A DNA stretch of 64,000 bases from Deltaproteobacteria bacterium (GCA_016193465.1 JACPSE010000186.1:6593-70592); one strand, 5' to 3'. Positions 19,778 through 59,304 are shown, counted from the first letter of the stretch. Numbers and translations: made by a program. The notes: generated by a model from the letters alone, not told the origin.

Positions 19778-21010
19778 TTAGAAAAACTCATTGAACCAAT
19801 CGACCATGCGGGTTCTTACCTTGCCGAAGAGATTCTCCTCGCGTATGCGGAAAAAGTTTTTATCCTGCCGCTTCATGCCGTAAAGGACCAAGCCCACACC
19901 CGTAGCGTAAATCGGGCTGGAGACGACATCGATGAGCCCGCCTACCCGGGCCGGGACGCCGAGGCGAACCGGCATGCCAAAGACCCCTTCCGCCATCTCG
20001 ATCATACCGGGAAGCAGCGTCGAGCCACCGGTCATCACGATACCCGAGGCCAACGATCCTTCAAAACCTGACTTGGCAATTTCGCGACGAATGAGCTGAA
20101 AGATCTCTTCCAGACGAGGCTCGATAATTTCGCACAGGATCTGCCGCGAGATGGTCCGGGAATTTCTCCCGCCCACACTCGGCACTTCCACCCTCTCATC
20201 CTTTGTAACCATCGAGGTACGGGCATATCCATAGCGCTGCTTGATGCGCTCGGCCTCGCTGATCGGGGTGCGCAATCCCGCAGCGATGTCGGCGGTCAGG
20301 TGATTTCCCCCGATGGCCAGAACCGCGGTGTGCTTCACCGCCCCATCGTGGAACAGAGCAATATCGGTAGTGCCTCCACCCATGTCTATTAGGGCAACGC
20401 CCAGTTCTTGCTCCTCTGGAGTCAAAACCGCCTCAGCCGAGGCTAGCGGCTCCAACGCCATATCCGCGACATTGAGCCCCGTGCGATTGCAGCACTTGAT
20501 AATGTTCTGCGCTGAAGTAACTGCTCCAGTTACGATGTGCACCTTGGCCTCCAGCCGCACACCGGACATCCCCAAGGGCTCTTTAATGCCGTCCTGATCA
20601 TCGATGACGTACTCTTGGGGAAGGATGTGGAGCACCTCCCGATCCATGGGGATTGCAACCGCCTTGGCGGCGTCAATGACTCGCTCGATGTCTCGCTGCG
20701 TCACCTCCTTATTCTTCACCGCCACGATGCCGTGGCTGTTAAACCCCTTGATGTGCCCTCCGGCAATACCCGTAAAGACCGAGTTGATCTCACATCCGGC
20801 CATGAGCTCGGCCTCCTCCACGGCCTTCTTGATGGAATCCACCGTGCTCTCGATATTGATAACCACTCCCTTGCGCAATCCTTGTGAGGCATGGGAGCCC
20901 ACCCCGACGATCTCCATGCCGCGCTCGGTCATCTCCCCAACGACCGCACAGACCTTGGACGTCCCGATATCCAGTCCCACGATCAGACTATTTTTGTTCT
21001 TCTTGGCCAT
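19778..21010 (-). CDS. ftsA: cell division protein FtsA
   Basis: Actin-like ATPase: LIVGLDIGTSKVCAVVGE...; 410 aa. Confidence 0.95.
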   Translation of the reverse strand: MAKKNKNSLIVGLDIGTSKVCAVVGEMTERGMEIVGVGSHASQGLRKGVVINIESTVDSIKKAVEEAELMAGCEINSVFTGIAGGHIKGFNSHGIVAVKNKEVTQRDIERVIDAAKAVAIPMDREVLHILPQEYVIDDQDGIKEPLGMSGVRLEAKVHIVTGAVTSAQNIIKCCNRTGLNVADMALEPLASAEAVLTPEEQELGVALIDMGGGTTDIALFHDGAVKHTAVLAIGGNHLTADIAAGLRTPISEAERIKQRYGYARTSMVTKDERVEVPSVGGRNSRTISRQILCEIIEPRLEEIFQLIRREIAKSGFEGSLASGIVMTGGSTLLPGMIEMAEGVFGMPVRLGVPARVGGLIDVVSSPIYATGVGLVLYGMKRQDKNFFRIREENLFGKVRTRMVDWFNEFF

Positions 21011-21037
21011 AACTCCCGTTTTGAACCTTTGAACCCT

Positions 21038-21895
21038 TTAACCCTTCAACTTCCCGCTGTTTCGTATTTTTGCTACCACCTGATCACGGAAGCTTAAGTC
21101 CAGAGATGCGAGTTGGGCCTCCTTGCCCTTCCACATAGAAAGGACTCGCTCCGCCCGCTGCAGCTTCCCCTGCCAGTCTCCCCAACCCATCCGAAGGGCG
21201 ACGCGATAGCCTATCGGGTAAAGGATCACTCCACCCTGTGGAGGGAAATGAATTTCAGAAAGGGAAAGAGACCCTCTCGCCATCAGTTCGCCAAGCTTCA
21301 GCGCCTCGCGGATCTTCTGCCGCGTAGCGTGAGCGTGGGATGCCAGATCGGCTTGCTGCAATCCTGTGAGCAGCGGAAAGTCCGTCTTTTCCCCTTCCGC
21401 AACTTCTTTAAAGACGAATCCTTCTGGATCGACGTAATAGAGCTTTCCCAGCACGACAATTCCCTTAGCCTGCCGCTCCTCAACCTCGATCACTACCCGA
21501 CGGGGCAAGTCCCGTCTCACTAAGACTCGCTTGACCCAGGGATGTTTTCCTACCTTTCTCTCTATAGTTTCCGGATCGATCTTCCAGATGTTCATCCCGT
21601 AACTCATTCCCGCCATGCCTACGATCTCGCTTCCTCCTACCTTCTCTCCGCCTTTCACTTGGATCGCCTCCACAGAAAAATAGGCATTGTCGAGGAGCCG
21701 ATCGCGCAGATGACTTCCCTGGCGCATCAGATGAGGCCAGCCTAGATAGAAGGCCAAGGCCGCAGAGAAAAAAACCAAGACCGCGGCCCAGGGAAGAAAG
21801 TTCGGCGGACTACCGGCCCCTTCCTTTTTTTTGTTCCCCCTGAAGCGACGAAAAATACCCATACCCTCTAATGACCGGCGTCGCTCAACGGCCAC
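21038..21895 (-). CDS. ftsQ: cell division protein FtsQ (POTRA)
   Basis: TM segment followed by POTRA and FtsQ domains. Position is in the dcw cluster. The start may be the internal Met at ~21862. Confidence 0.75.
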   Translation of the reverse strand: MAVERRRSLEGMGIFRRFRGNKKKEGAGSPPNFLPWAAVLVFFSAALAFYLGWPHLMRQGSHLRDRLLDNAYFSVEAIQVKGGEKVGGSEIVGMAGMSYGMNIWKIDPETIERKVGKHPWVKRVLVRRDLPRRVVIEVEERQAKGIVVLGKLYYVDPEGFVFKEVAEGEKTDFPLLTGLQQADLASHAHATRQKIREALKLGELMARGSLSLSEIHFPPQGGVILYPIGYRVALRMGWGDWQGKLQRAERVLSMWKGKEAQLASLDLSFRDQVVAKIRNSGKLKG

Positions 21896-24295: not shown

Positions 24296-24341
24296 GGTTC
24301 AAAACAATAGGCAGCAGGCAATAGAAAATTCGTTTATCGCC

Positions 24342-25430
24342 TCACGCCTCTCGCCTTCCGCCTTCCGCCTTCAAAAGGGCATAACACTCATCAACGATTC
24401 TTTTTGCCGCCTCCGGTTTCCCCAGTTTTCGGGCCGCCATGCCTATGGCCTCAAGCCGCTTGCGATCCAGATAGAGGGCCCGAATCCGTTCAGCCAGTTT
24501 TTCCCCAGTTAATTCCCGGTCGAGAATCATCTCTGCCGCCCCTTGATCTTGGAGCACCTGGGCATGGAAGCGCTGGTGGTCATAGGCGGCGTAAGGATAG
24601 GGGACCAAAATCGCGGCTTTCCCAAAAACCGTCAGCTCCGAGACGGTGCCTGCGCCGGCGCGGCAAAGCACAAGGTCCGCCCGCGCATAGGCCTCATCCA
24701 TCCGCTCCACGAATGGCAGGACATCCGCCTCGAACGGAAGCGAGCCATAGGCTTCCTTGATCGCGGCAAAATCCGCCTGTCCAGTCTGGTGCATCACGCG
24801 CAGCCCTGTCGTCAAGTCTCTAAGGCTTTGCAGGGCCTCGATTACGCAGAGGTTGATTTTGTGCGCGCCCGCGCTGCCGCCGAAGACGAGCAGGGTGAAC
24901 TTTTCACTCTTCGCGATCTCGGGAAGGGCCTGCCAGCGCACTGGATTTCCCGCAGTTATGACCCTGGCGCGAGGAAAATAGGGAGCGCTTTCTTCATAAG
25001 AGGTGAAGACACGATCCGCCAGACAGCTCAAGATCCGATTGGTGAAACCGGGACGCAGATTCTGCTCCATAATGGCGCAGCGAATCCCCTTCGATTTGCC
25101 CGCAAGGAGAAAGGGGCCGGACGCATAACCTCCTAAACCGATGATGCAATCGGGCCGAAAGCGGGCGATGATCCCAAGGGAACGGAAAAAGCTAACGGGA
25201 ATACCGTAGAGGGCCTGCAGGGAACCACGCAGCCCTCTTCCCTTGAGGCCCCGGATCGGGATGGTCGCCAAGGGAAACCCTTCCCGGGGAAGGATCCGGC
25301 TTTCGATTCCCAGTTCGGTGCCGACGAACAGTATCTCCGTCATTCGATCTCTTCTCCGAAACTCACGCGCCACAGCCAGCCCGGGGAAGAGGTGGCCGCC
25401 TGTTCCCCCGCCGGCCATGATCAGCCGCAT
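24342..25430 (-). CDS. murG: UDP-GlcNAc--MurNAc-pentapeptide GlcNAc transferase
   Basis: MRLIMAGGGTGGHLFPGLAVA. The start is set at the internal Met (25430), 2 nt after the ftsW stop; the 25622 ORF extension is spurious. Confidence 0.9.
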   Translation of the reverse strand: MRLIMAGGGTGGHLFPGLAVAREFRRRDRMTEILFVGTELGIESRILPREGFPLATIPIRGLKGRGLRGSLQALYGIPVSFFRSLGIIARFRPDCIIGLGGYASGPFLLAGKSKGIRCAIMEQNLRPGFTNRILSCLADRVFTSYEESAPYFPRARVITAGNPVRWQALPEIAKSEKFTLLVFGGSAGAHKINLCVIEALQSLRDLTTGLRVMHQTGQADFAAIKEAYGSLPFEADVLPFVERMDEAYARADLVLCRAGAGTVSELTVFGKAAILVPYPYAAYDHQRFHAQVLQDQGAAEMILDRELTGEKLAERIRALYLDRKRLEAIGMAARKLGKPEAAKRIVDECYALLKAEGGRREA

Positions 25431-25432
25431 TT

Positions 25433-26527
25433 TTACATTCTCCCGCGCGACAGGCTGAGCAGTATCCCCGCGCATGTCAGGTTCATCACCATGGCTGAAC
25501 CTCCATAGCTGATAAACGGGAGCACCAGCCCCTTGGTGGGCATCAAGCCCATGACCACCCCCATATGGATCAGTGCTTGAAGTCCCAGCAGGATCGTCAA
25601 TCCAAAGGCCAGGTATTGACAAAAGGGTTCATCGATTCTCGATACCAGACGGAATCCCCGCACGACGACCACGCCGAAAAGCGCTAACACGGCAACGGCT
25701 CCCAACAGACCCAACTCTTCGCCGATAACAGAGAAGATAAAATCCGTGTGGGCCTCCGGCAGGTAAAAAAGCTTCTGGCGGCTCTCCCCCAGACCGCGAC
25801 CCCATAGTTGGCCGGAGCCGAACGCGATATAAGACTGGATAATCTGGAAGCCCGTACTCGAGGCATCCCGCCAGGGGTCCAGAAAAATAAGCAGGCGCCG
25901 CAGACGGTACTCGGCGCCGACCACCGCAAGCGCCACAGCCGGCAGGGCCATCAGACCGATCACAGCCAGGTGGGAGAACTTGGCGCCGCCGACGAAGAGC
26001 ATGAGAACGAGAAGCATGCCGAGAATGAGAGTTGTCCCCAGATCGGGCTCCAGCATGACGAGTCCCAAAAAGAGGCCGCCGATAATCAGGTGCGGCAGGA
26101 GTCCCATGGCGAAGGTTTGGACCTTTTCCCCTTTCTTCGCCAGAGAGTGGGCCAGGTAGAGCACAAGAGAGATCTTTGCGAGCTCCGCGGGCTGAAAGGC
26201 GAACCCTCCCAAGGGCAACCAACGTCTGGCGCCGCCGCGCGACAAACCAATCCCAGGAACTAGAACCAGTATCAACACAAAAAGAGTCAGGGCCAGAAGG
26301 GGATAGGCAAAGCGACGGTAAGAGGCAGGGGGGAGCAGCGCGGCAACGACGAGAGTGGCCAGTCCCGCCCCTGCTGCGGTGAGCTGTTTACGGAAAAAAT
26401 AGGTCCCATCGGAGAAGCGCTCCTGCGAATAAAGATAACTGGTGCTAAGCACCATCGTGATCCCCACCGCCAACAGCGCGGCCACGGCGAAGAAGAGCCA
26501 TCCATCTACCGCAATACCTTCTCTCAT
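25433..26527 (-). CDS. ftsW: peptidoglycan glycosyltransferase FtsW (SEDS family)
   Basis: Ten-TM SEDS protein with a PxxE...FGSGQ-type conserved block (AFGSGQLWGRGLGES). Confidence 0.9.
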   Translation of the reverse strand: MREGIAVDGWLFFAVAALLAVGITMVLSTSYLYSQERFSDGTYFFRKQLTAAGAGLATLVVAALLPPASYRRFAYPLLALTLFVLILVLVPGIGLSRGGARRWLPLGGFAFQPAELAKISLVLYLAHSLAKKGEKVQTFAMGLLPHLIIGGLFLGLVMLEPDLGTTLILGMLLVLMLFVGGAKFSHLAVIGLMALPAVALAVVGAEYRLRRLLIFLDPWRDASSTGFQIIQSYIAFGSGQLWGRGLGESRQKLFYLPEAHTDFIFSVIGEELGLLGAVAVLALFGVVVVRGFRLVSRIDEPFCQYLAFGLTILLGLQALIHMGVVMGLMPTKGLVLPFISYGGSAMVMNLTCAGILLSLSRGRM

Positions 26528-27858
26528 AAACCTTGAACCAGCGTCTTAAAGACCTTTCCCCTTTCCGCGTAGTTCTGAAACATGTCAAAGCTCGAACAGG
26601 CGGGAGACAGAAGGACAACTTCTCCCGGGCGAGCGGTGCGATAGGCCTCTTGGACCGCGGCCTCGAGACTCTCCACCACTGCGGTATCGCTCAGGTGGCC
26701 CAATGCCGTTCGAATCTTTTCCTTCGCCATGCCAAAGAGAACGAGCTTCTTGACTTTACGCTTCACTTCGTCTTCCAATATCCGGTAATCCCCTCCCTTA
26801 TCGATCCCCCCAGCAATCAGAACTACTGGCGCGGAAAAGCTGGCCAGAGATTTTACCACCGCTCCCACATTGGTTCCTTTGGAGTCGTTATAAAATCGGA
26901 TGCCATCCTTTTCGCGCACGAATTCAAGACGGTGCTCAAGCCCGGGAAACTCTTCCATGACTCTTTGAATAACCTCTGCCGATACGTGGGCTGACTTCGC
27001 CGCTGCTATCGCGGCCATTAGGTTCTCCACATTGTGGACCCCTTGGATCTTAACCCGGGCAAGAGAGAAGCTCTCTTCCCGATTCTTCCCGCGCCAGATA
27101 ATCTCGCTGGATGTCGCATAGACCCCCTCGGGCACCTCCGCCCATCCAAAGGAGACCGGTCGCGAGCGGATCCGCTTCCTGATGGGCCACACCAAGGGAT
27201 CATCTCGATTAAGAACCGCGACGTCCGCGCCGGTCTGGGCATGAAAAATCCTCTCCTTGGCCTCGCAGTACGAGGCAAAGTCCGGATATCGATCCAGGTG
27301 ATCCTCGGTTAAGTTCAGCAGCACCGCGATCCCGGGACGGAACTGCTCGACCCACTCGAGCTGAAAACTGCTCACCTCCACCACCCCCCAGTTCCACTGG
27401 TCGCCAACAAAGCCAATCAACGGCGCGCCGATGTTTCCGCCCACAAAGACCTTGAGACCACTCGCTTCGAGCATCTCGCCCACGAGCGTGCTGGTCGTGC
27501 TCTTGCCGTTGGTCCCGGTAATGGCCACCAGAGGAGCCGTGAGAAACCGACAGGCTAACTCGATTTCACTGATAACCCCAATCCCTCTCTGCCGTGCGCC
27601 CCGAAGCAGAGGATTTCCTGCCGGGACACCCGGGCTAGCAACCAGCAGTTCCACCCCCTCTAGCCAGGCAGCCTCTTCTCCGCCTAGCAAGAAACGTACA
27701 GGAAGACCGGAGAGGGCTTCTGTCTCTCGTTTCAGTTCCGCTTCACTTCTACAATCACTCACCAAGACTTCCGCTCCTTTACGGACGAGAAACCGGGCCG
27801 TTTCGCTTCCCGTGCGTGCCAGGCCCAAAACCATGACCTTTTTTCCCTGTAGCTCCAT
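26524..27858 (-). CDS. murD: UDP-N-acetylmuramoylalanine--D-glutamate ligase
   Basis: MELQGKKVMVLGLARTG...ITGTNGKSTT. The start is taken at the Met matching the E. coli MurD N-terminus (27858). Confidence 0.9.
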   Translation of the reverse strand: MELQGKKVMVLGLARTGSETARFLVRKGAEVLVSDCRSEAELKRETEALSGLPVRFLLGGEEAAWLEGVELLVASPGVPAGNPLLRGARQRGIGVISEIELACRFLTAPLVAITGTNGKSTTSTLVGEMLEASGLKVFVGGNIGAPLIGFVGDQWNWGVVEVSSFQLEWVEQFRPGIAVLLNLTEDHLDRYPDFASYCEAKERIFHAQTGADVAVLNRDDPLVWPIRKRIRSRPVSFGWAEVPEGVYATSSEIIWRGKNREESFSLARVKIQGVHNVENLMAAIAAAKSAHVSAEVIQRVMEEFPGLEHRLEFVREKDGIRFYNDSKGTNVGAVVKSLASFSAPVVLIAGGIDKGGDYRILEDEVKRKVKKLVLFGMAKEKIRTALGHLSDTAVVESLEAAVQEAYRTARPGEVVLLSPACSSFDMFQNYAERGKVFKTLVQGL

Positions 27859-27972
27859 CTTTCCGGTCGGCAACTCAGAAAAAAAGTTCAAGTCGTTAAC
27901 CCTTTGAACGGCTTGAACGTTTTGAACATCTCTTGCTGCCTCCTGCATACTGCTTTCTGCCTTCTCTCCGTT

Positions 27973-29052: not shown

Positions 29053-30456
29053 TTACTCTCCCGTCTCCTTGAGCGCCTCTACGACCTTCTCCATTTTCAT
29101 GCCACGGGAGCCTTTGCAGAGAAGCCAGTCTCCCCGCCTTACCTGTCTTTGAACTATCCGGGCGATTTGTCGGTGATTTTTTCCGATAACCACTCGCCCT
29201 TTTTCCATCCCTGCGAGCAGGGCCGCTTGTTGAACCCGGCGCGCCTGCTCCCCGAGAAGATAGAGGCGATCAATGCCGTAGCGCGCCACCTGTTTTCCCA
29301 GCTCCCGGTGGCTTTCGCCGCTCTCTCTGCCCAACTCGAGCATATCCCCCAGAATCGCAATTTTTTCTCCTGTGGTTCCGATCTCGACCAGTGTTTTGAG
29401 CGCGGCTTCCATAGAAGCCGGATTGGCATTGTAGGCATCATTGATGATCCCGATCCCTCTCCACGTCTCCAACGACATCCGCATCAGAAAGGGCCGCACC
29501 GCTTCCAGTCCCCTGCCTATTGTCTCCAGGTCCACTCCAAGTCCGTAGGCCATCGCCGCGGCTCCCACCGCATTGGAAAAATTGTGCTCGCCGCAGAATT
29601 TGAGCCGGATGCGCTGCCGACCGCTACCCGCGCGCAGTGTAAACTCCGCCCCCTGTGTCCCCAAGGATACCCGCGATTCCCCTCTCACCTCGCCGCTTGT
29701 CCCGTAGGTAATCTTGTCACCTTTAAAGCTTCCTGCCAGACGGCGCACCCACGGATCGTCCATATTCACTACAGCGAGGCCGCCGGGATTCATCCCGCGA
29801 AAGAGTTCCCCCTTCTCCCGCGCGATGCCTGCAAGGTTGCGAAGTCCGGTCAAGTGGGCCGGCGCGACCGATGTGATAAGACCGATATCAGGGTCGGCGA
29901 TTTCGGTCAGGCGCCGGATCTCTCCCGGCCGACTTGTTCCCAATTCCAGCACGGCTACCCTCTCTCTGCCCTTCAGACGAAGCAGCGTTAAAGGTAACCC
30001 CACGAGGTTGTTAAAGTTCCCTTCGGTTTTTAGAACCCTGCCCCGAAGCGATTTTCCGTGAATCGCAGCCCGGTCTAGAATCGCCGCCACCATTTCCTTC
30101 GTCGTCGTCTTCCCGTTTGATCCTGTAATAGCCAAAACCTTAGGCGCCACCATGTTGCGGCGATGGCGGGCCAGATCTCCCAGGGCCTTGAGCGTGTCCC
30201 GAACCCGAATCACAGCCGCACCCTTCAAATGGAAAACCCCTGGCCGCTTGTGAACCACCAAGCAGGCCGCCCCGCGGCGAGCCGCCTCCCTCAGAAAGTC
30301 ATGGCCGTCAAACCTCTCTCCTTTCAGCGCGACAAACACGGACCCCTTCACGACCTTTCCAGAATCGGTAACGACCTCGCCGAAGACTACCTCCCTTCCC
30401 TCGCGCAGGATCTTCCCGCCGGTCGCCAAGAGGATCTCTTGCTTGCTCCATGACAT
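29053..30456 (-). CDS. murF: UDP-MurNAc-tripeptide--D-alanyl-D-alanine ligase
   Basis: Mur ligase with ITGSNGKTTTKEM and cluster position. Confidence 0.9.
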   Translation of the reverse strand: MSWSKQEILLATGGKILREGREVVFGEVVTDSGKVVKGSVFVALKGERFDGHDFLREAARRGAACLVVHKRPGVFHLKGAAVIRVRDTLKALGDLARHRRNMVAPKVLAITGSNGKTTTKEMVAAILDRAAIHGKSLRGRVLKTEGNFNNLVGLPLTLLRLKGRERVAVLELGTSRPGEIRRLTEIADPDIGLITSVAPAHLTGLRNLAGIAREKGELFRGMNPGGLAVVNMDDPWVRRLAGSFKGDKITYGTSGEVRGESRVSLGTQGAEFTLRAGSGRQRIRLKFCGEHNFSNAVGAAAMAYGLGVDLETIGRGLEAVRPFLMRMSLETWRGIGIINDAYNANPASMEAALKTLVEIGTTGEKIAILGDMLELGRESGESHRELGKQVARYGIDRLYLLGEQARRVQQAALLAGMEKGRVVIGKNHRQIARIVQRQVRRGDWLLCKGSRGMKMEKVVEALKETGE

Positions 30457-30541
30457 TACTTTAGCTCATAGACCGCCAAAAAGAACTGTCGGCTCATTGC
30501 AAAATGAAAGTGCAAAATACAAAAGTCAAATTTTTCATTTT

Positions 30542-32110
30542 TCACTTTGCATTTTGAATTGAGTCCAGCTCTTCTCTCGCCACTTCCCGGTCATCGAAGT
30601 GGATGCGCCTGGGTCCCAGGATTTGATAATCCTCATGTCCTTTTCCTGCTATCAGCACCAGGTCACCGGCGTGTGCCAGCCGCAGAGCTAAACGGATAGC
30701 GGCGCGACGATCCGGCTCGACATAATAACCTTTCTCAGTTTTTAGTTTTGAGTTTTTAGTTTTGAGTTCCGAGTATTGAGATCTGAGATCTGAAATCTGA
30801 AATTTTTTTATGCCGGTCTTTCGCACTCCCGCTTCGACCTCTTCCAGGATCCCGAGCGGCTCCTCGGTGCGCGGATTATCTGAGGTCAGGACTGCCAGGT
30901 CGCCGAGACGCCCCGCGATCTCGCCCATGAGGGCTCTTTTTCCTCGATCGCGATCTCCGCCGCAGCCAAAAAGCACAATCAGCTTCCTCCGGGTCAAGGG
31001 CCGTACGGCGCCAATCACCCTCTCCAAGGCATCGGGGGTATGGGCGTAATCGACCAAAACCGAGACGCCGAGGTCGTTCTTGATCCTTTCCAACCTGCCG
31101 GGAACCGATTGGAGCCGGGCGATCCCGGTCGAAATAGCGCTCCCCGGCAAGCCCAAGGCGAAACCAACGCCGACGGCGCCCAAGATATTTTCCAGATTAG
31201 CCACGCCTATCAGTCGAGAGGAGAAATCGATCTCTTCACCCTTCACCCGGATCTTTCCTGTAAGCCCGTCAATGCCCCCTTCAAACTCCGCCGGGTGAAC
31301 ATCCCACTCTCTCCCCCGGCCGTAGCTCCAAACCTCAAACCCCAGATTGCGGATTTTTTCCAAAAGTTCTTTGCCCCTGGAGTCCCCGCCATGAATGACC
31401 GCGAACTTTTTCTCCTTAGAGCTCGCTCCAAGGTAATCCGTAAAAAGCTTGGTCTTGGCGGAAAAATAACCCTCCATATCCCGGTGGAAATCGAGATGGT
31501 CGCGCGTGAGATTGGTAAACAGAGCCCCATCAAATTCGATTCCCCGCACCCGTTCCATCTCCAATGCGTGCGAGGAAACTTCCATGGCCACGGAGTTAAC
31601 TCCGGCATCAGCCATCTCGGCCAGAAGCCCCTGGAGATCCACCGACTCCGGAGTCGTGTACGGCGCGGGCAATGCCCGATCCTGATACCTGTAATTGATC
31701 GTGCCAACCACTCCCGGCGCCATCCCCGCCGCCGAAAAGATCGATTCCAAGAGATACGTGACCGTGGTCTTGCCGTTGGTGCCGGTGACTCCGATCAACG
31801 CTATTCGACTACTCGGGCGCGCGAAATATAAGGCTGACCACATTCCCATAGTCCGCCTTACGCTGCGCACTCGGACCGAGGTGGCGCCTTGAGGCAGTGG
31901 TATCCTCTGCTCCACAACTACAGCGGCAGCGCCTCGCTCGAGGGCCTCGGCAGTAAACTGATGCCCATCCGCCCGCGTCCCGGAAACCGCAAAGAAGAGA
32001 TCACCTTTTTTTACTCGCCGCGAATCGTAGGCAAGACCCGTGATAGTCTGATTCATATCTCCCTCGGCCTCTTCTACTTGCCCCGCCTCCACGAGTTCCT
32101 TGAGCCTCAT
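30542..32110 (-). CDS. murE: UDP-MurNAc-L-Ala-D-Glu--2,6-diaminopimelate ligase; carries an in-frame AT-rich repeat-derived insertion near the C-terminus
   Basis: GVTGTNGKTT...DNPRTEEP...AGKGHEDYQI. The start is taken at MRLKELVE (about 32110, +/-1-2 bp), 5 nt after the ftsI stop. Confidence 0.9.
   Translation of the reverse strand: MRLKELVEAGQVEEAEGDMNQTITGLAYDSRRVKKGDLFFAVSGTRADGHQFTAEALERGAAAVVVEQRIPLPQGATSVRVRSVRRTMGMWSALYFARPSSRIALIGVTGTNGKTTVTYLLESIFSAAGMAPGVVGTINYRYQDRALPAPYTTPESVDLQGLLAEMADAGVNSVAMEVSSHALEMERVRGIEFDGALFTNLTRDHLDFHRDMEGYFSAKTKLFTDYLGASSKEKKFAVIHGGDSRGKELLEKIRNLGFEVWSYGRGREWDVHPAEFEGGIDGLTGKIRVKGEEIDFSSRLIGVANLENILGAVGVGFALGLPGSAISTGIARLQSVPGRLERIKNDLGVSVLVDYAHTPDALERVIGAVRPLTRRKLIVLFGCGGDRDRGKRALMGEIAGRLGDLAVLTSDNPRTEEPLGILEEVEAGVRKTGIKKFQISDLRSQYSELKTKNSKLKTEKGYYVEPDRRAAIRLALRLAHAGDLVLIAGKGHEDYQILGPRRIHFDDREVAREELDSIQNAK
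30735..30808. repeat. AT-rich tandem repeats inside the murE coding sequence (2.x copies of a 14-mer, then a 7-mer array)
   Basis: tttttagttttgag x2, ttccgagtattgag, atctgag x2, atctgaa x2. On the coding strand this encodes ...KKFQISDLRSQYSELKTKNSKLKTEKGYY..., absent from E. coli MurE. Confidence 0.7.
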
Positions 32111-32115
32111 CCTGG

Positions 32116-34071
32116 TCAACCCTGCAGGTTCAGAGTCAGCGGTTCTCCCTTCCCCCAAACTGCGCCAGGAGCGGGCGACTGTTTTACAACGTACCCGTTG
32201 CCGCGCAACTCTACCTTGAGCTTCAGGGTCCTTGCCTTCTCGACCGCCTCGCGCAGGCTGAGACCAACAAAGTCCGGAACCTCCAGAACGCCGTCTCCCT
32301 TCTCCGCCTCATTCCCACTCTTTCGCTCCACGCGCACCGAAGTTCCCTCTTTAGCCGCCGGCAAGGGCAGCGGCTGAGGCTTGTCTGGCACGATGCCCAA
32401 ATAGCGCAAGGCGCCGCTTGCGATATTGCGAAAGGCCGGTGCGGCAACGACGCCGCCATAAACGCTACCTTCCGGTTCATCCACGATGACGAGCAAAACT
32501 AGCCGGGGATCATCCGCCGGCACAAATCCGATAAAGGAAGCAACTCTCTTCCTGCCCGAATATCCGCCATGGACCAGATCCGGCTTCTCGGCAGTCCCAG
32601 TTTTGCCGGCAACTTCGAACCCTTCCACACTGGCCATGAGACCGGTCCCACCATCGCTTACAACTCCCTTGAGAATTGCCGTAAGCAAGCGGGCGCTCTT
32701 TTCCGAAACTACGCGACGCACCACATGGGGCTGGTTGGCTACCAACACCTCGCCGTCAGGGGCAACCACGCGACGCACGACGAAAGGCCGCATGAGGATA
32801 CCCCCATTGGCAACCGCTCCATACGCCATAACGAGCTGAATCGGGGTCACTGCAATTCCCTGCCCGAACGCGTGAGTGGCCAAATCAATGGGAGACCAAC
32901 TATCCGGGCGTCGCGCCATGCCGGCCGCCTCTCCGGGCATGTCGATCCCTGTCAGATGACCAAAGCCAAATCTCTCGATGTATTTGAAATACCTCTCCTT
33001 CTTAAGTTTCTCCGCCACTTTGGTTACGCCAATGTTGCTGGAGTATTGGATGATCTTGTAGAAGGGCAGCCACCCGTACTCATGGGTGTCGTGAATAGTC
33101 CTGCCTGCATAAGAATATTTGCCAAATTCACAATAGAAGAGGTCTTCTTTGCCGACTACGCCTTCCTCCAAGACAGCGGCGGCTAAAATCGTTTTGAATG
33201 TGGAACCGGGCTCGAAACTGTCTGTCACTGCCCGATTGCGCCACTGCCGGGATGACTGCCGGGCAAAGTTGTTGGGATTAAAAAACGGATAGTTTGCAAG
33301 CGCCAGGACCTCGCCGGTAAACGGCTCCACTACGACGGCGATACCCGCTCTGGCGCGATATTTGGCAACCGTCGCTTCTAGCTGTTTTTCCGCGAGATGT
33401 TGGATAGAGGTATCTACGGTCAGGTGGATATCCGCTCCGGGCGGTATCTGAATCTCTTCCACGCCTCGGGCGAGGACCCTGCGCCCCAAGGCATCGCGCT
33501 CGATTACCGGCGAGCCGCTCTCGCCGCGGATATAACTGTCGTAATATAGTTCAATGCCTTCCAACCCTTGGGAATCCCTGCCCACAAAACCCACTACCTG
33601 TCCCGCAAGCTGGCCTTGCGGATAGTAGCGATTGGGTTCGGAGGACATTCCTACCCCTTCCAGGTTGAGTGCTCTTATTGTCTCCGCCTCTTTGGGGGTT
33701 ATCTGCCGTTTGAGCCAGACAAAAGGTTTCTCTGTCTTGAGCTTCTGCTGCAGCTCAGCCTGGTCCAGACCCAAAGCCTGGGCCAAACTCTGCGCCACCC
33801 TCTCCGGTTCTTTAATACGCCTGGGACGGGCATAAACCGACTGGACCTCGAGGCTTAGCGCCAATGGCTCGCCGGCACGGTCCAGAATGGTTCCCCGCTT
33901 CGGCAACACAATCCATTCCTTCAGGTGTTGCCGCTCTCCAAGTCGTTTGAGCTTTTCTCCTTGGAGGATCTGAAGCTGAAATGCGCGCACCAGCACCGCC
34001 AAAAACATCACCAGGAAAAAGAGCCCGGCGATGGCCAAGCGGAACCTGATCCCTTGGAAGGATCTTCTCAT
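32116..34071 (-). CDS. ftsI: peptidoglycan D,D-transpeptidase FtsI (class B PBP) with a C-terminal PASTA domain
   Basis: TM anchor, transpeptidase motifs (STFK, SSN-like, KTGT), and a C-terminal PASTA-like ~60 aa. Confidence 0.9.
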   Translation of the reverse strand: MRRSFQGIRFRLAIAGLFFLVMFLAVLVRAFQLQILQGEKLKRLGERQHLKEWIVLPKRGTILDRAGEPLALSLEVQSVYARPRRIKEPERVAQSLAQALGLDQAELQQKLKTEKPFVWLKRQITPKEAETIRALNLEGVGMSSEPNRYYPQGQLAGQVVGFVGRDSQGLEGIELYYDSYIRGESGSPVIERDALGRRVLARGVEEIQIPPGADIHLTVDTSIQHLAEKQLEATVAKYRARAGIAVVVEPFTGEVLALANYPFFNPNNFARQSSRQWRNRAVTDSFEPGSTFKTILAAAVLEEGVVGKEDLFYCEFGKYSYAGRTIHDTHEYGWLPFYKIIQYSSNIGVTKVAEKLKKERYFKYIERFGFGHLTGIDMPGEAAGMARRPDSWSPIDLATHAFGQGIAVTPIQLVMAYGAVANGGILMRPFVVRRVVAPDGEVLVANQPHVVRRVVSEKSARLLTAILKGVVSDGGTGLMASVEGFEVAGKTGTAEKPDLVHGGYSGRKRVASFIGFVPADDPRLVLLVIVDEPEGSVYGGVVAAPAFRNIASGALRYLGIVPDKPQPLPLPAAKEGTSVRVERKSGNEAEKGDGVLEVPDFVGLSLREAVEKARTLKLKVELRGNGYVVKQSPAPGAVWGKGEPLTLNLQG

Positions 34072-38307: not shown

Positions 38308-39225
38308 ATGGATAAAATCAAATTTCCTTACCGCTCGGATGGCCACTTGGCCTTTCTGCACGTTGTCCATGAATCGGGAAGCTGGGAGAAACACGGCCTT
38401 CAGGTGGACTATGACTTTTTCATAAGCGCCGACGACGCCCATCAGGCAGTGACTAAGGGAGAAGTAGAATTTGTCAGCGGCAATCACCTTTCCCCTTATG
38501 CAGCAAGACTCAAAGGAGATCCCTGGGTCTATGTGGGCCAAACCGTCAATCTGAATTACCACCGGCTGGTAGCGCAGCCAAACTCAGGCATTAACAAGAT
38601 CGGGGACCTCAAGGGAAAAGTTGTAGCCCACAAAGGGCAGCACCCGGGGCTCAACAATTGGCTTTTTCTTAGAGATAACGGGCTTGATCTGGACCGGGGT
38701 GATGTGGCGATGAAAAAATGGCGCAGCGAAGATAAAGGATCATGGGAAGGAGTCAGGATAGGAGAATTTGACGCGGCCCTGGTAACCCCGCCGGAGGATA
38801 TCCTGGCAAAGAGGGCCGGTCTGAAAGTTATTGAGATTCCTTTTCAGCCGATGATCTGGTTTACCACGATCTCCACCAGTTGGACCTTCGTCCAAAAACA
38901 CAGCGATATTGTGGAAAGAGTCTTAAAAGGAATCGCCGAGGGGACTCACTTTTACAAGACGCAGAAGGCAAAGACCATTGCCATCTTAGAAGAAAAATAC
39001 CGCTCGGAAGGCTGGGATCGAGAAATCGTAGAGCACGTTTATACTCAGATAGCGGCGATCTTGGAGAAAAAGCCCTATCCCGCGCTGGCCGCGATCCATA
39101 ATGTTTTTGAGCTGGCAAAGAGGCAGGACCCGGAGTCCGCTAAAGTCAACCCTTTGTCCCTCTGGGATATGCACTATCTCAGGCAGATAGACGACAGCGG
39201 CTTTATTGACAAGCTGTACGCTTAG
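38308..39225 (+). CDS. NMT1/THI5-like (SsuA/TauA-fold) substrate-binding domain protein without a signal peptide
   Basis: Periplasmic-binding-protein type 2 fold signature. No N-terminal hydrophobic segment. GAGGAGG SD. Confidence 0.55.
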   Translation: MDKIKFPYRSDGHLAFLHVVHESGSWEKHGLQVDYDFFISADDAHQAVTKGEVEFVSGNHLSPYAARLKGDPWVYVGQTVNLNYHRLVAQPNSGINKIGDLKGKVVAHKGQHPGLNNWLFLRDNGLDLDRGDVAMKKWRSEDKGSWEGVRIGEFDAALVTPPEDILAKRAGLKVIEIPFQPMIWFTTISTSWTFVQKHSDIVERVLKGIAEGTHFYKTQKAKTIAILEEKYRSEGWDREIVEHVYTQIAAILEKKPYPALAAIHNVFELAKRQDPESAKVNPLSLWDMHYLRQIDDSGFIDKLYA

Positions 39226-39274
39226 ACCAAGGACGAAGGTGGAAGGCGAAAGGATAAAATTTCATCCTTCATCC

Positions 39275-45956: not shown

Positions 45957-46883
45957 TCAAGGATACTTAGTCTTTGCCTCAAGCGGAGTCAAAATTTCTC
46001 TCACGGAATGATCATCAGCGATAACAGTCACTTGTTGCGTATGAGTACTGTCATGAGCCAAATTTTTAATTTGGATCGCAGGATGTACAGACCTCCAGAA
46101 ATAATGGACGAATTCTTTGATCTGCTCACTGCTCATTCCTTTTCCTTGTGCCCGCAATATCTCTTCGGCTTGATCCCTCCATTTAAGTGAAACCTGATAG
46201 TGCGGCACGAACAAAACGTTCATAAATTCAATCATATCCCACAAAGGCTCATAATCAGAAAGTTTTTCATTGATATCCTTGGCAAACTGGATATGCTCCG
46301 GTGTGTCCAAAGCCGGTAAGCCAACTTCAAATATAGACTTATCTAAAACTCTCCTTGCCCCAAGCATCCAACCGTCATAAAAAATAAAATCAGGCTTTTT
46401 TGTAATAACCTTCCAACCTACTCTGTCTCCATCTCCATGCTCTGCTCCCTTATCGTATATTGGCACCTCAACTTCCATGCCGTCTTTCATAGTTCTTAGA
46501 TCAGTCAAGTTTTTCATTGCCAGAGGTATGTCATGGGTTACCCCCCTTCTTATAAACCTTGGGCCTTTTTCTCTTAATTTATTAAGTTCTTCGTGTGTAA
46601 CGTAATGGTCATCAATTGAGAGAGAAACACAAGTGTAACCTGAAAATTTAAGTAAGATTTCTAAAACCTCTCCTTGAGTTGTTTTGCCTGCGCCTTGGAT
46701 CGCTGAAATTCCAACAATCAAACCATCCAAATTTTTCTTCTGCTTTTTTTTATCAATTAATTTTTGTATGTATGGAAGGTAGTAATTCCTCAGGTCTTGT
46801 TTTAAATTGTCTTTTGATATTTCAGGACGCTTTTCAAATATTGGATTAAATATTGTTATATTTTTCTCTATATCAAAATTCAT
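45957..46883 (-). CDS. P-loop kinase of the D-glycerate 3-kinase (plant GLYK / yeast Tda10) family
   Basis: LIVGISAIQGAGKTTQ...SLSIDDHYVTHEE...YDKGAEHGDGDR...FYDGWMLG...SSEQIKEFVHYFWRSVHP parallels the GLYK family. The gene lies in a markedly AT-rich segment. Confidence 0.65.
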   Translation of the reverse strand: MNFDIEKNITIFNPIFEKRPEISKDNLKQDLRNYYLPYIQKLIDKKKQKKNLDGLIVGISAIQGAGKTTQGEVLEILLKFSGYTCVSLSIDDHYVTHEELNKLREKGPRFIRRGVTHDIPLAMKNLTDLRTMKDGMEVEVPIYDKGAEHGDGDRVGWKVITKKPDFIFYDGWMLGARRVLDKSIFEVGLPALDTPEHIQFAKDINEKLSDYEPLWDMIEFMNVLFVPHYQVSLKWRDQAEEILRAQGKGMSSEQIKEFVHYFWRSVHPAIQIKNLAHDSTHTQQVTVIADDHSVREILTPLEAKTKYP

Positions 46884-47003
46884 GATACATTAGATTGTAA
46901 CGCAACGGATTACCTATTCAATAACCCTCTGTTTTCAACAAACCTAATAACAGGTTTCGTCCTTGCCCTCGTGCCTGAGCAAAGGCTACCTTCCGAGAAA
47001 ACT

Positions 47004-47771: not shown

Positions 47772-47966
47772 AAGAGTTCAAAACAAAACACCTGCTTGAC
47801 AGGATCTTTTTCAGGATACTACGCAGGGACTAAATTCGCCAACCCCGTTTAGACCCAGAATCCGCGGACACATAACGTAGGCCCGTCTCGGTTCGCTTCA
47901 TCCCTCACCTTTCGCCTATATCCTTTAACTCTGACGCCTCACGGCTCACGCCTTTCGCCTAATTTT

Positions 47967-59210: not shown

Positions 59211-59304
59211 TTACTTGACACTCAACTCCCTCATTCGATAGTCTCCGCGAAAAAGCAATCAGTCATCAGGTGAACGCTGAGCGCTGAAGGCTGAGTGCTC
59301 GTTT

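Follow-up and report, generated by a model that had tools for sequence, protein, structure and literature searches.

Evidence for an old heptanucleotide microsatellite in a long surface loop of the essential enzyme MurE

Here, we describe a tandem repeat that lies in frame within murE in a 64,000-nucleotide stretch of DNA from a Deltaproteobacteria bacterium (GCA_016193465.1, JACPSE010000186.1:6593-70592; hereafter the window, with positions counted from its first nucleotide). The repeat is a tract of ten seven-nucleotide units that encodes part of a loop in the C-terminal domain of MurE, and this loop is extended in relatives of the protein as well. Our results make it probable that the tract is an old coding heptanucleotide microsatellite, tolerated in a MurE loop that was already long, and that it is neither a mobile insert nor an on/off switch.

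Results

The repeat-bearing gene encodes a bona fide MurE

The open reading frame (ORF) that holds the tract encodes a bona fide MurE. Its product scores 522.3 bits against the NCBIfam MurE equivalog NF001126 (cut-off 373) and 504 bits against NF001124 (cut-off 476), and the Pfam families PF01225, PF08245 and PF02875 are found on P0001, a deposited protein identical to that of the window, which begins at the ATG at 32110. An AlphaFold2 model built on a 118-sequence alignment (mean predicted local distance difference test score, pLDDT, of 90.9) has the three-domain Mur ligase fold, with template modeling (TM) scores in Foldseek of 0.84–0.86 to the solved MurE structures 1e8c, 2wtz and 4c13. The protein contains the sequence DNPRTEEP, in which D411, N412 and R414 do not vary among 118 relatives and P413 hardly varies. 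DNPR is the motif of enzymes specific for diaminopimelic acid (DAP), and by these features the window MurE belongs to the meso-DAP-adding UDP-MurNAc-tripeptide synthetases. MurE is essential for peptidoglycan synthesis in studied bacteria, and no second murE was seen within the 64-kb window. The gene, its loop and the parts of the repeat are as follows.

30542–32158, minus strand: murE coding sequence, the longest ORF from a TTG in the ORF list (538 codons), reading through both parts of the repeat
30713–30802, minus strand: 30 codons (FQISDLRSQYSELKTKNSKLKTEKGYYVEP) that replace E. coli MurE residues 439–441; the HMMER alignment to 1e8c/7b53 breaks exactly here
30740–30784, minus strand: codons of residues 443–457 (522-residue numbering), RSQYSELKTKNSKLK, the only residues to which the model gives a pLDDT below 50; predicted to be flexible
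30776–30803, minus strand: heptanucleotide array, part 1, ATTTCAG ATTTCAG ATCTCAG ATCTCAA, encoding FQISDLRSQ; the better-conserved part (Tandem Repeats Finder, phasing)
30769–30775, minus strand: degenerate unit TACTCGG, bridging both parts of the array with the 7-nucleotide phase kept (phasing)
30734–30768, minus strand: heptanucleotide array, part 2, AACTCAA AACTAAA AACTCAA AACTAAA AACTGAG, encoding LKTKNSKLKTE; the variable part (Tandem Repeats Finder, phasing)

Ten in-phase units form a single tract

Tandem Repeats Finder (TRF) returned two arrays, one at 30737–30768 (period 14, 2.3 copies, 100% match) and one at 30777–30803 (period 7, 3.9 copies, 95% match). A preliminary description of this DNA had given a 14-mer array and a 7-mer array as separate entities; both are real, but 7-mer phasing places them in one tract of ten in-phase units at 30734–30803, in which the coding-strand units follow one another in the order listed above and the 14-mer is two 7-mer variants (AACTCAA and AACTAAA) in alternation. 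These short units lie head to tail beyond chance expectation: the 14-mer (at two mismatches or fewer) has three matches against 0.43 expected, a number reached in 1 of 100 shuffles, the 25-nucleotide 7-mer array was matched in no shuffle, and simulated sequence had no lag-7 islands at the strict threshold. Autocorrelation in the tract is 0.55 at lag 7 and 0.1–0.3 at neighboring lags, and the lag-7 signal in the DNA is stronger than that at lag 21. The content of guanine plus cytosine (GC) is 28% in the tract compared with 60–62% in its flanks; over 30735–30808 it is 0.284, in the right flank 0.617, between the tract and a second AT-rich island 170 nucleotides away 0.60, and in the rest of murE 0.58. 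TRF, the shuffles, the ORF and the base composition thus bear out the original claim of AT-rich tandem repeats in frame in murE, with local GC below 30% against about 60% in the flanks.

Because seven is not divisible by three, each unit is read in a different frame from the one before, and three units (21 nucleotides, seven residues) yield a heptad-like peptide, ISDLRSQ / YSELKTK / NSKLKTE. Read in one of its frames, the unit AACTAAA contains a stop and therefore cannot occur three times in succession; here it is present solely in alternation with AACTCAA. The loop sequence is identical in P0001, from an NCBI metagenome-assembled genome (MAG), and in P0121, from an independent Logan assembly, and is therefore not an assembly artifact. 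Directly upstream of the array is a run of seven A (30804–30810; AUA AAA AAA UUU, encoding IKKF), a homopolymer that could slip. A programmed frameshift at this run was considered and dropped: the run is 5–7 A long in relatives, with no other support.

The repeat encodes a flexible part of a C-terminal-domain loop

In the secondary structure of the model, the loop lies in the C-terminal domain between the helix that follows the DNPR motif and the next strand. The span from DNPR to GKGHE is 83 residues in the window and 56 in E. coli, a net gain of 27 by HMMER alignment that agrees well with the approximately 26 added low-complexity residues first described. The loop had also been put at about 11 residues in E. 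coli; the alignment sets 30 window residues against three (439–441) in the E. coli protein. KKFQISDL, as the first part of the loop, shows fair conservation, with a pLDDT of approximately 86. Conservation at residues 437–442 is 42–69% across the 118 relatives, and in the same alignment the columns of array part 2 contain 31–40% gaps. The model places a 10-residue helix at 439–448 and has no confident extended helix, and the hydrophobic pattern differs with the lineage unit (h..h..., ...h..., ...h.h., h......). A coiled coil was rejected, as the a/d hydrophobic pattern is not conserved across lineages and model confidence is low. On the best-supported reading, the repeat-encoded peptide would be a hydrophilic, flexible surface excursion that the enzyme tolerates. 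The proposal of a slippage-prone sequence tolerated in a surface loop is upheld by the confinement of pLDDT values below 50 to repeat residues and by the polymorphism within clusters and the 21-nucleotide indel described below.

The loop is shared by relatives and turns over in 21-nucleotide steps

For comparison, we used the 120 nearest homologs (61–79% identity by BLASTP), from MAGs labelled "Deltaproteobacteria" or Candidatus Binatia by their sources, and an alignment of 118 relatives (61–81% identity). The source labels are in part truncated and in part inconsistent ("Deltaproteobacteria", "Candidatus Binatia", "Candidatus Acid..."). Every one of the 118 aligned relatives, and likewise each of the 120 homologs, has an extended loop at the orthologous position. 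Across this clade the DNPR–GKGHE span ranges from 69 to 116 residues, with modes at 83, 76, 74 and 80; the modal class of 83 (39 of the 118 sequences) includes the window, and members without the expansion have spans of 69–74 residues. As to whether the loop is lineage-specific, a point on which the preliminary description had called for an alignment of orthologs, it is so relative to E. coli but ancestral within the clade, where orthologs have loops of similar length and composition, the outcome that the description had given as grounds to reject an insertion.

The DNA of five relatives, obtained by exact-protein look-ups, has the same design, with lag-7 autocorrelation of 0.43–0.64 and values of 0.1–0.3 at neighboring lags. 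The units are specific to each lineage (ATCTCAA/ATCCAAA, AACTCGA x4, AATCTGA/AATCTTA and AATTCGA/AATTCGC; L161, L163, L164 and L165 are among these relatives), and units are homogenized within the arrays of the window, L161, L163, L164 and L165. Locally perfect units (AACTCGA x4, ATCCAAA x3 and the 14-mer x2.3) persist in proteins that have diverged by 20–35%, which argues that the tracts are continually renewed and undergo concerted evolution. In L163, in which the unit is AACTCGA, the loop is 50% GC; the AT-richness of the window tract thus stems from the composition of the unit that was amplified.

Loop length also varies inside clusters of 90% identity (40/33, 49/42 and 63/42), with differences of 7, 7, 21 or 10 residues. 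Between L165 and L166, which are 96.6% identical in nucleotide sequence, the only indel is one of 21 nucleotides, or three units, and thus represents a copy-number polymorphism. At least 51 changes in loop length fall on a 118-taxon tree built from the protein core, and among sister pairs that differ, differences of 7 and 14 residues are the commonest.

Other peculiarities of the relatives concern the same site. Five partial proteins of one population (P0137, P0140, P0141, P0142 and P0145, of the P0009 cluster) stop at or just before the array; contig breaks there would fit strain-level length heterogeneity. In P0214, encoded on a contig of 1.4 kb, the frame shifts within the array, owing either to an error or to a rare allele that is out of frame. 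In one subgroup (L162 at ~1678–1756, which corresponds to P0007, along with P0004, P0005, P0009, P0013 and P0015) a GC-rich insert is nested in the AT-rich array (ENRST-VLDP...EAHDRSPKS). This insert has three size classes, set apart by 10 and 14 residues, and varies among members of the same 90% cluster; it contains GAGCTC palindromes and a GGCTC motif that recurs at a spacing of approximately 14 nucleotides.

The array lies inside an older long loop

As an outgroup we used relatives of 35–54% identity among the matches listed in a metagenome scan with generic Mur-ligase peptide patterns. Their DNPR–GKGHE span, scorable at 156 of 160 loci, is bimodal, with an E. coli-like class of 54–63 residues and a longer class of 67–77 residues. 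The longer class occurs in Desulfobacterota, Nitrospirota, Myxococcota and others and has normal GC content and no 7-nucleotide periodicity (lag-7 autocorrelation of 0.14–0.41 at the long-loop loci), and the array therefore sits inside an older long loop. KKFQISDL lines up with this older loop, for example with KTQYQPSEILNGF in L091, and chains of the plant MurE-like protein PAP11 align through the long loop at this site with only a 7-residue gap. About 12–15 of the 27 extra residues therefore predate the repeat and are part of the older, non-repetitive loop, and the microsatellite adds 7, 14 or more residues in this clade only.

Heptamer arrays recur at gene ends and junctions

The window contains seven lag-7 islands compared with 0.2–0.6 expected, and 0–4 islands at other lags. 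Six period-7 arrays are siblings of the murE tract; all lie at gene ends or junctions, and three are in the same division and cell wall (dcw) operon.

24338–24373, minus strand: GAAGGCG GAAGGCG GAAGGCG AGAGGCG TGAGGCG, spanning the murG stop codon and encoding the last residues, KAEGGRREA (TRF, lag-7 scan)
27930–27970, minus strand: array of AAGGCAG-like units at the mraY–murD junction (TRF period 7, 4.3 copies; lag-7 scan)
30496–30559, minus strand: AT-rich hairpin with 7-nucleotide-periodic arms, spanning the murE stop codon and the murE–murF spacer (inverted repeat, TRF period 7)
39223–39260, plus strand: GACGAAG GTGGAAG GCGAAAG, between two convergent genes (lag-7 scan, gene map)
47925–47961, plus strand: intergenic array CGCCTCA CGGCTCA CGCCTTT (TRF, lag-7 scan)
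59267–59303, plus strand: intergenic array CTGAGCG CTGAAGG CTGAGTG, just upstream of a transporter gene (TRF, lag-7 scan)

A GGCG-type unit (GAAGGCG, TGAGGCG, AGGCGAA) is common to several of these arrays, which suggests that the heptamer arrays of this genome form a loose family. For murD (longest ORF 26524–27948) and murG (longest ORF 24342–25622), the family profiles begin only 36 and 63 codons into the ORF. The true starts of both genes are probably further in, and, given the later murD start, the mraY–murD array is likely intergenic.

The arms of the murE–murF hairpin are 29 nucleotides long and 72% complementary, with an RNA fold z-score of −3.9. Its sequence is common to the window and L164 (4544–4616), and entirely different junction sequences in L162 (~1994–2082) and L161 (4461–4520) have the same hairpin design; z-scores in these four lineages are −3.9, −2.3, −5.0 and −3.8. 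L163 and L165 have a 12-nucleotide murE–murF spacer only and no hairpin. The hairpin could serve as a processing or stabilizing element of the dcw transcript. Rfam returned two weak microRNA-like hairpin matches only for this junction element (E = 0.11 and 0.27), far below the gathering scores. The murE tract itself has no match in Rfam and no RNA fold that is shared by five lineages (z = +0.44, −1.2, −1.1, −2.2 and +0.3), and no promoter-like or terminator-like sites were found in 30300–31000.

Across 1.07 Mb of outgroup loci, lag 7 was likewise the most frequent non-triplet period, often at murE junctions. Heptamer arrays occur in unrelated lineages (L132 4394–4453, L134 4410–4458, L077 4399–4458, L143 4460–4504, L109 1873–1919, L032 716–815, L151 3048–3188 and L028 6871–6962), among them Selenomonadales (L077), Elusimicrobia (L032) and Firmicutes (L028). 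Those of L132, L134, L077, L143 and L109 adjoin the murE 3' end. Several of their units have purine-rich, Shine-Dalgarno-like cores (GGAATTA, GGAGGCT, GAGGGTA x12). In L028 two arrays are paired in inverted orientation, and L151 has two adjacent arrays that differ in unit.

Two further features of the window stand apart from the period-7 arrays. A period-8 array at 21020–21050 (TTTGAACC TTTGAACC CTTTAACC), just downstream of the Mur genes, lies at the junction of the minus-strand ORFs 19778–21010 and 21038–21895 and represents the sole other non-triplet period that passed the strict threshold. The largest low-GC stretch, 46207–46935 (approximately 0.29–0.33 compared with 0.55 overall), makes up most of a minus-strand ORF at 45957–46883 and may be foreign DNA.

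Discussion

Our data lead us to favor, with good though not full confidence, a model in which a coding heptanucleotide microsatellite would have arisen in the already long C-terminal-domain loop of MurE in the ancestor of a Binatia-like clade and would have turned over ever since. Because murE is essential, slippage or realignment would survive only when the change is a multiple of 21 nucleotides, or when units convert at constant length. Such a reading-frame filter would explain why loop length changes in 7-residue steps, why units are homogenized within lineages and differ between them, and why stop-bearing units persist in alternation only. The encoded peptide would be parked in a flexible loop with no need for a specific function. 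We infer that replication slippage is the mechanism, that out-of-frame alleles are lethal and that the tract is nearly neutral.

Several considerations weigh against this model. If it is neutral, a non-triplet repeat should be a burden on an essential gene, since two-thirds of unit slippages would be lethal. Such a repeat should also decay by point mutation, and its persistence throughout a deep clade may be a sign of selection. The conservation and high pLDDT (~86) of KKFQISDL raise the possibility that part of the tract is structurally constrained. Moreover, some length differences are not multiples of seven residues, including a recurrent 10-residue indel and others of 1–4 residues.

Alternatively, the heptad peptide could be functional and under selection, as a coiled coil or amphipathic helix through which MurE docks onto MurF or the divisome, or as a means of tuning activity by repeat number, an effect reported for the repeat region of NeuO. 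A repeat of seven nucleotides always gives a repeat of seven residues, in the commonest version in the clade (ISDLKSQ ISNLKSK IQNLKSE) I and L fall at a/d-like positions, AlphaFold predicts the short helix at 439–448, 39 of 118 sequences share the modal span, and the tract has persisted over deep divergence. However, the hydrophobic pattern changes between lineages, pLDDT falls below 50 over the repeat-encoded residues, and there are clade members that lack the expansion; furthermore, a stronger signal at lag 7 than at lag 21 is what a process at the DNA level predicts and peptide selection does not. We therefore regard a selected peptide as unlikely. A role for the nucleic acid, which we consider very unlikely, could take the form of dcw mRNA that is A-rich and unstructured here, or of a DNA array, in either case bound by a heptamer-repeat protein (cold-shock/S1-like), or of an RNase entry site; on this view the tract would belong to the same system as the junction arrays and affect how murF and the genes downstream are expressed. 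Intergenic heptamer repeats have been suggested to be sites to which a post-transcriptional regulator binds (PMC4679880). The position of the six sibling arrays at gene ends and junctions, half of them in the dcw operon, and the murE–murF hairpins of differing sequence in four lineages (z = −2.3 to −5.0) would also suit such a role, but lineages differ in the unit inside murE, the tract lacks a consistent RNA structure, promoter- or terminator-like sites and an Rfam match, and members of the clade do without the expansion. We know of no binding protein for such arrays. That the murE tract and the dcw junction arrays form one system, in which a heptamer-binding factor or the heptad peptide tunes cell wall precursor synthesis, strikes us as decidedly unlikely; if true, 21-nucleotide slippage steps would act as an evolvable 'dial' on an essential enzyme, as in NeuO but without the OFF state.

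Two further explanations were raised in the preliminary description and find little room in our data. One holds that the tract is a phase-variable contingency locus at which slippage toggles murE in a subpopulation. The repeat is coding and non-triplet, as in neuO (PMC13001214), the frameshift of P0214 falls in the array, and in one population several contigs stop there or just short of it. But perfect tracts are short, with at most four identical units (the longest in the window is the 32-nucleotide 14-mer x2.3, and 7-mers there occur at most twice in succession), and MurE is essential, so OFF cells would lyse. The P0214 frameshift comes from a single 1.4-kb contig and may be an error; with this exception, loops from the 120 nearest homologs and from the members of ten 90% clusters are in frame, in protein databases that are biased against detecting OFF alleles. 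As the observed polymorphism also consists mostly of multiples of seven residues, we find phase variation highly improbable. The other explanation, a recent MITE-like (miniature inverted-repeat transposable element) or horizontally acquired AT-rich insertion, draws on the sharp drop in GC (0.28 against ~0.60) and the second AT-rich island 170 nucleotides away; an assembly artifact can be grouped with it. These we judge scarcely credible: the site is occupied in 118 of 118 aligned relatives with no presence/absence polymorphism, which refutes a recent or MITE-like insertion; AT-richness is a property of the unit, as the 50% GC of the L163 loop illustrates; and two independent assemblies agree on the loop. 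Neither terminal inverted repeats nor a target-site duplication were found around the tract, where the sole long-range pair (30470–30490 and 30799–30819, 76%) does not bracket it, and no other copy of either array, at up to 2–3 mismatches, exists within the 64-kb window.

What makes the murE tract unusual is its position inside a conserved domain of an essential enzyme. If the model of a tolerated old microsatellite is correct, the tract provides a clean natural example of a non-triplet repeat that is long-lived in an essential gene, with a clear three-unit filter, and should be useful for studies of microsatellite evolution and of loop tolerance in proteins; the MurE site tolerates 13 to 60 extra residues. 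The annotation and assembly of Binatia-like MAGs are affected as well, since contigs appear to break at the tract, and strains of this uncultured lineage could be typed by it.

The closest analog of the murE tract at the level of DNA and translation is the variable-number tandem repeat (VNTR) of neuO, the O-acetyltransferase gene of the CUS-3 prophage in E. coli K1. Its unit, AAGACTC, is likewise seven nucleotides long and read in three frames to yield a 7-residue repeat, and full-length protein is made only at copy numbers divisible by 3, slippage being the source of copy-number differences among strains (PMC13001214). In the window murE, too, a 7-nucleotide coding unit read in three frames encodes a heptad peptide; its unit AAAACTC is one base from that of neuO, and the peptides are alike (NSKLKTQ in murE and KTQDSRL in neuO), a likeness that reflects convergence and not homology. 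neuO, however, is an accessory gene with the repeat at its 5' end, in 3–53 perfect copies, and approximately two-thirds of sequenced alleles are out of frame, so that it works as a genuine on/off switch (PMC13001214), whereas the murE tract consists of about ten imperfect units in an internal loop of an essential gene and its alleles differ mostly by in-frame steps. Length differences that are mostly multiples of seven residues are not those of an ON/OFF switch, and the murE tract does not belong to the phase-variable class.

The period of the tract is itself common. Heptanucleotides are reported to be the most abundant class of long simple sequence repeats (SSRs) in most prokaryotic genomes (Mrazek et al. 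2007, via PMC4679880), and long heptanucleotide SSRs are mostly intergenic or overlap ORF ends (PMC4679880). The preference for period 7 over other non-triplet periods and the six sibling arrays of the window fit this picture. Beggiatoaceae and cyanobacteria have intergenic TAACTGA repeats (PMC4679880), and in a Beggiatoaceae genome a heptamer repeat lies at the very end of a MurG (MacGregor 2015, PMC4679880), like the window array at 24338–24373. Unlike the TAACTGA-type repeats, the units in the window are diverse, with no single favored heptamer, and the position of the murE tract is conserved clade-wide. At the protein level, the long loop of PAP11 occupies the same C-terminal-domain site as that of the window MurE and is of similar extra length, with the core fold unchanged (TM 0.84 to 8r6s_Q), but Mur ligase loop insertions such as this one are not repetitive in DNA. 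The murE tract is thus a coding SSR of the known heptanucleotide class and not a new mechanism.

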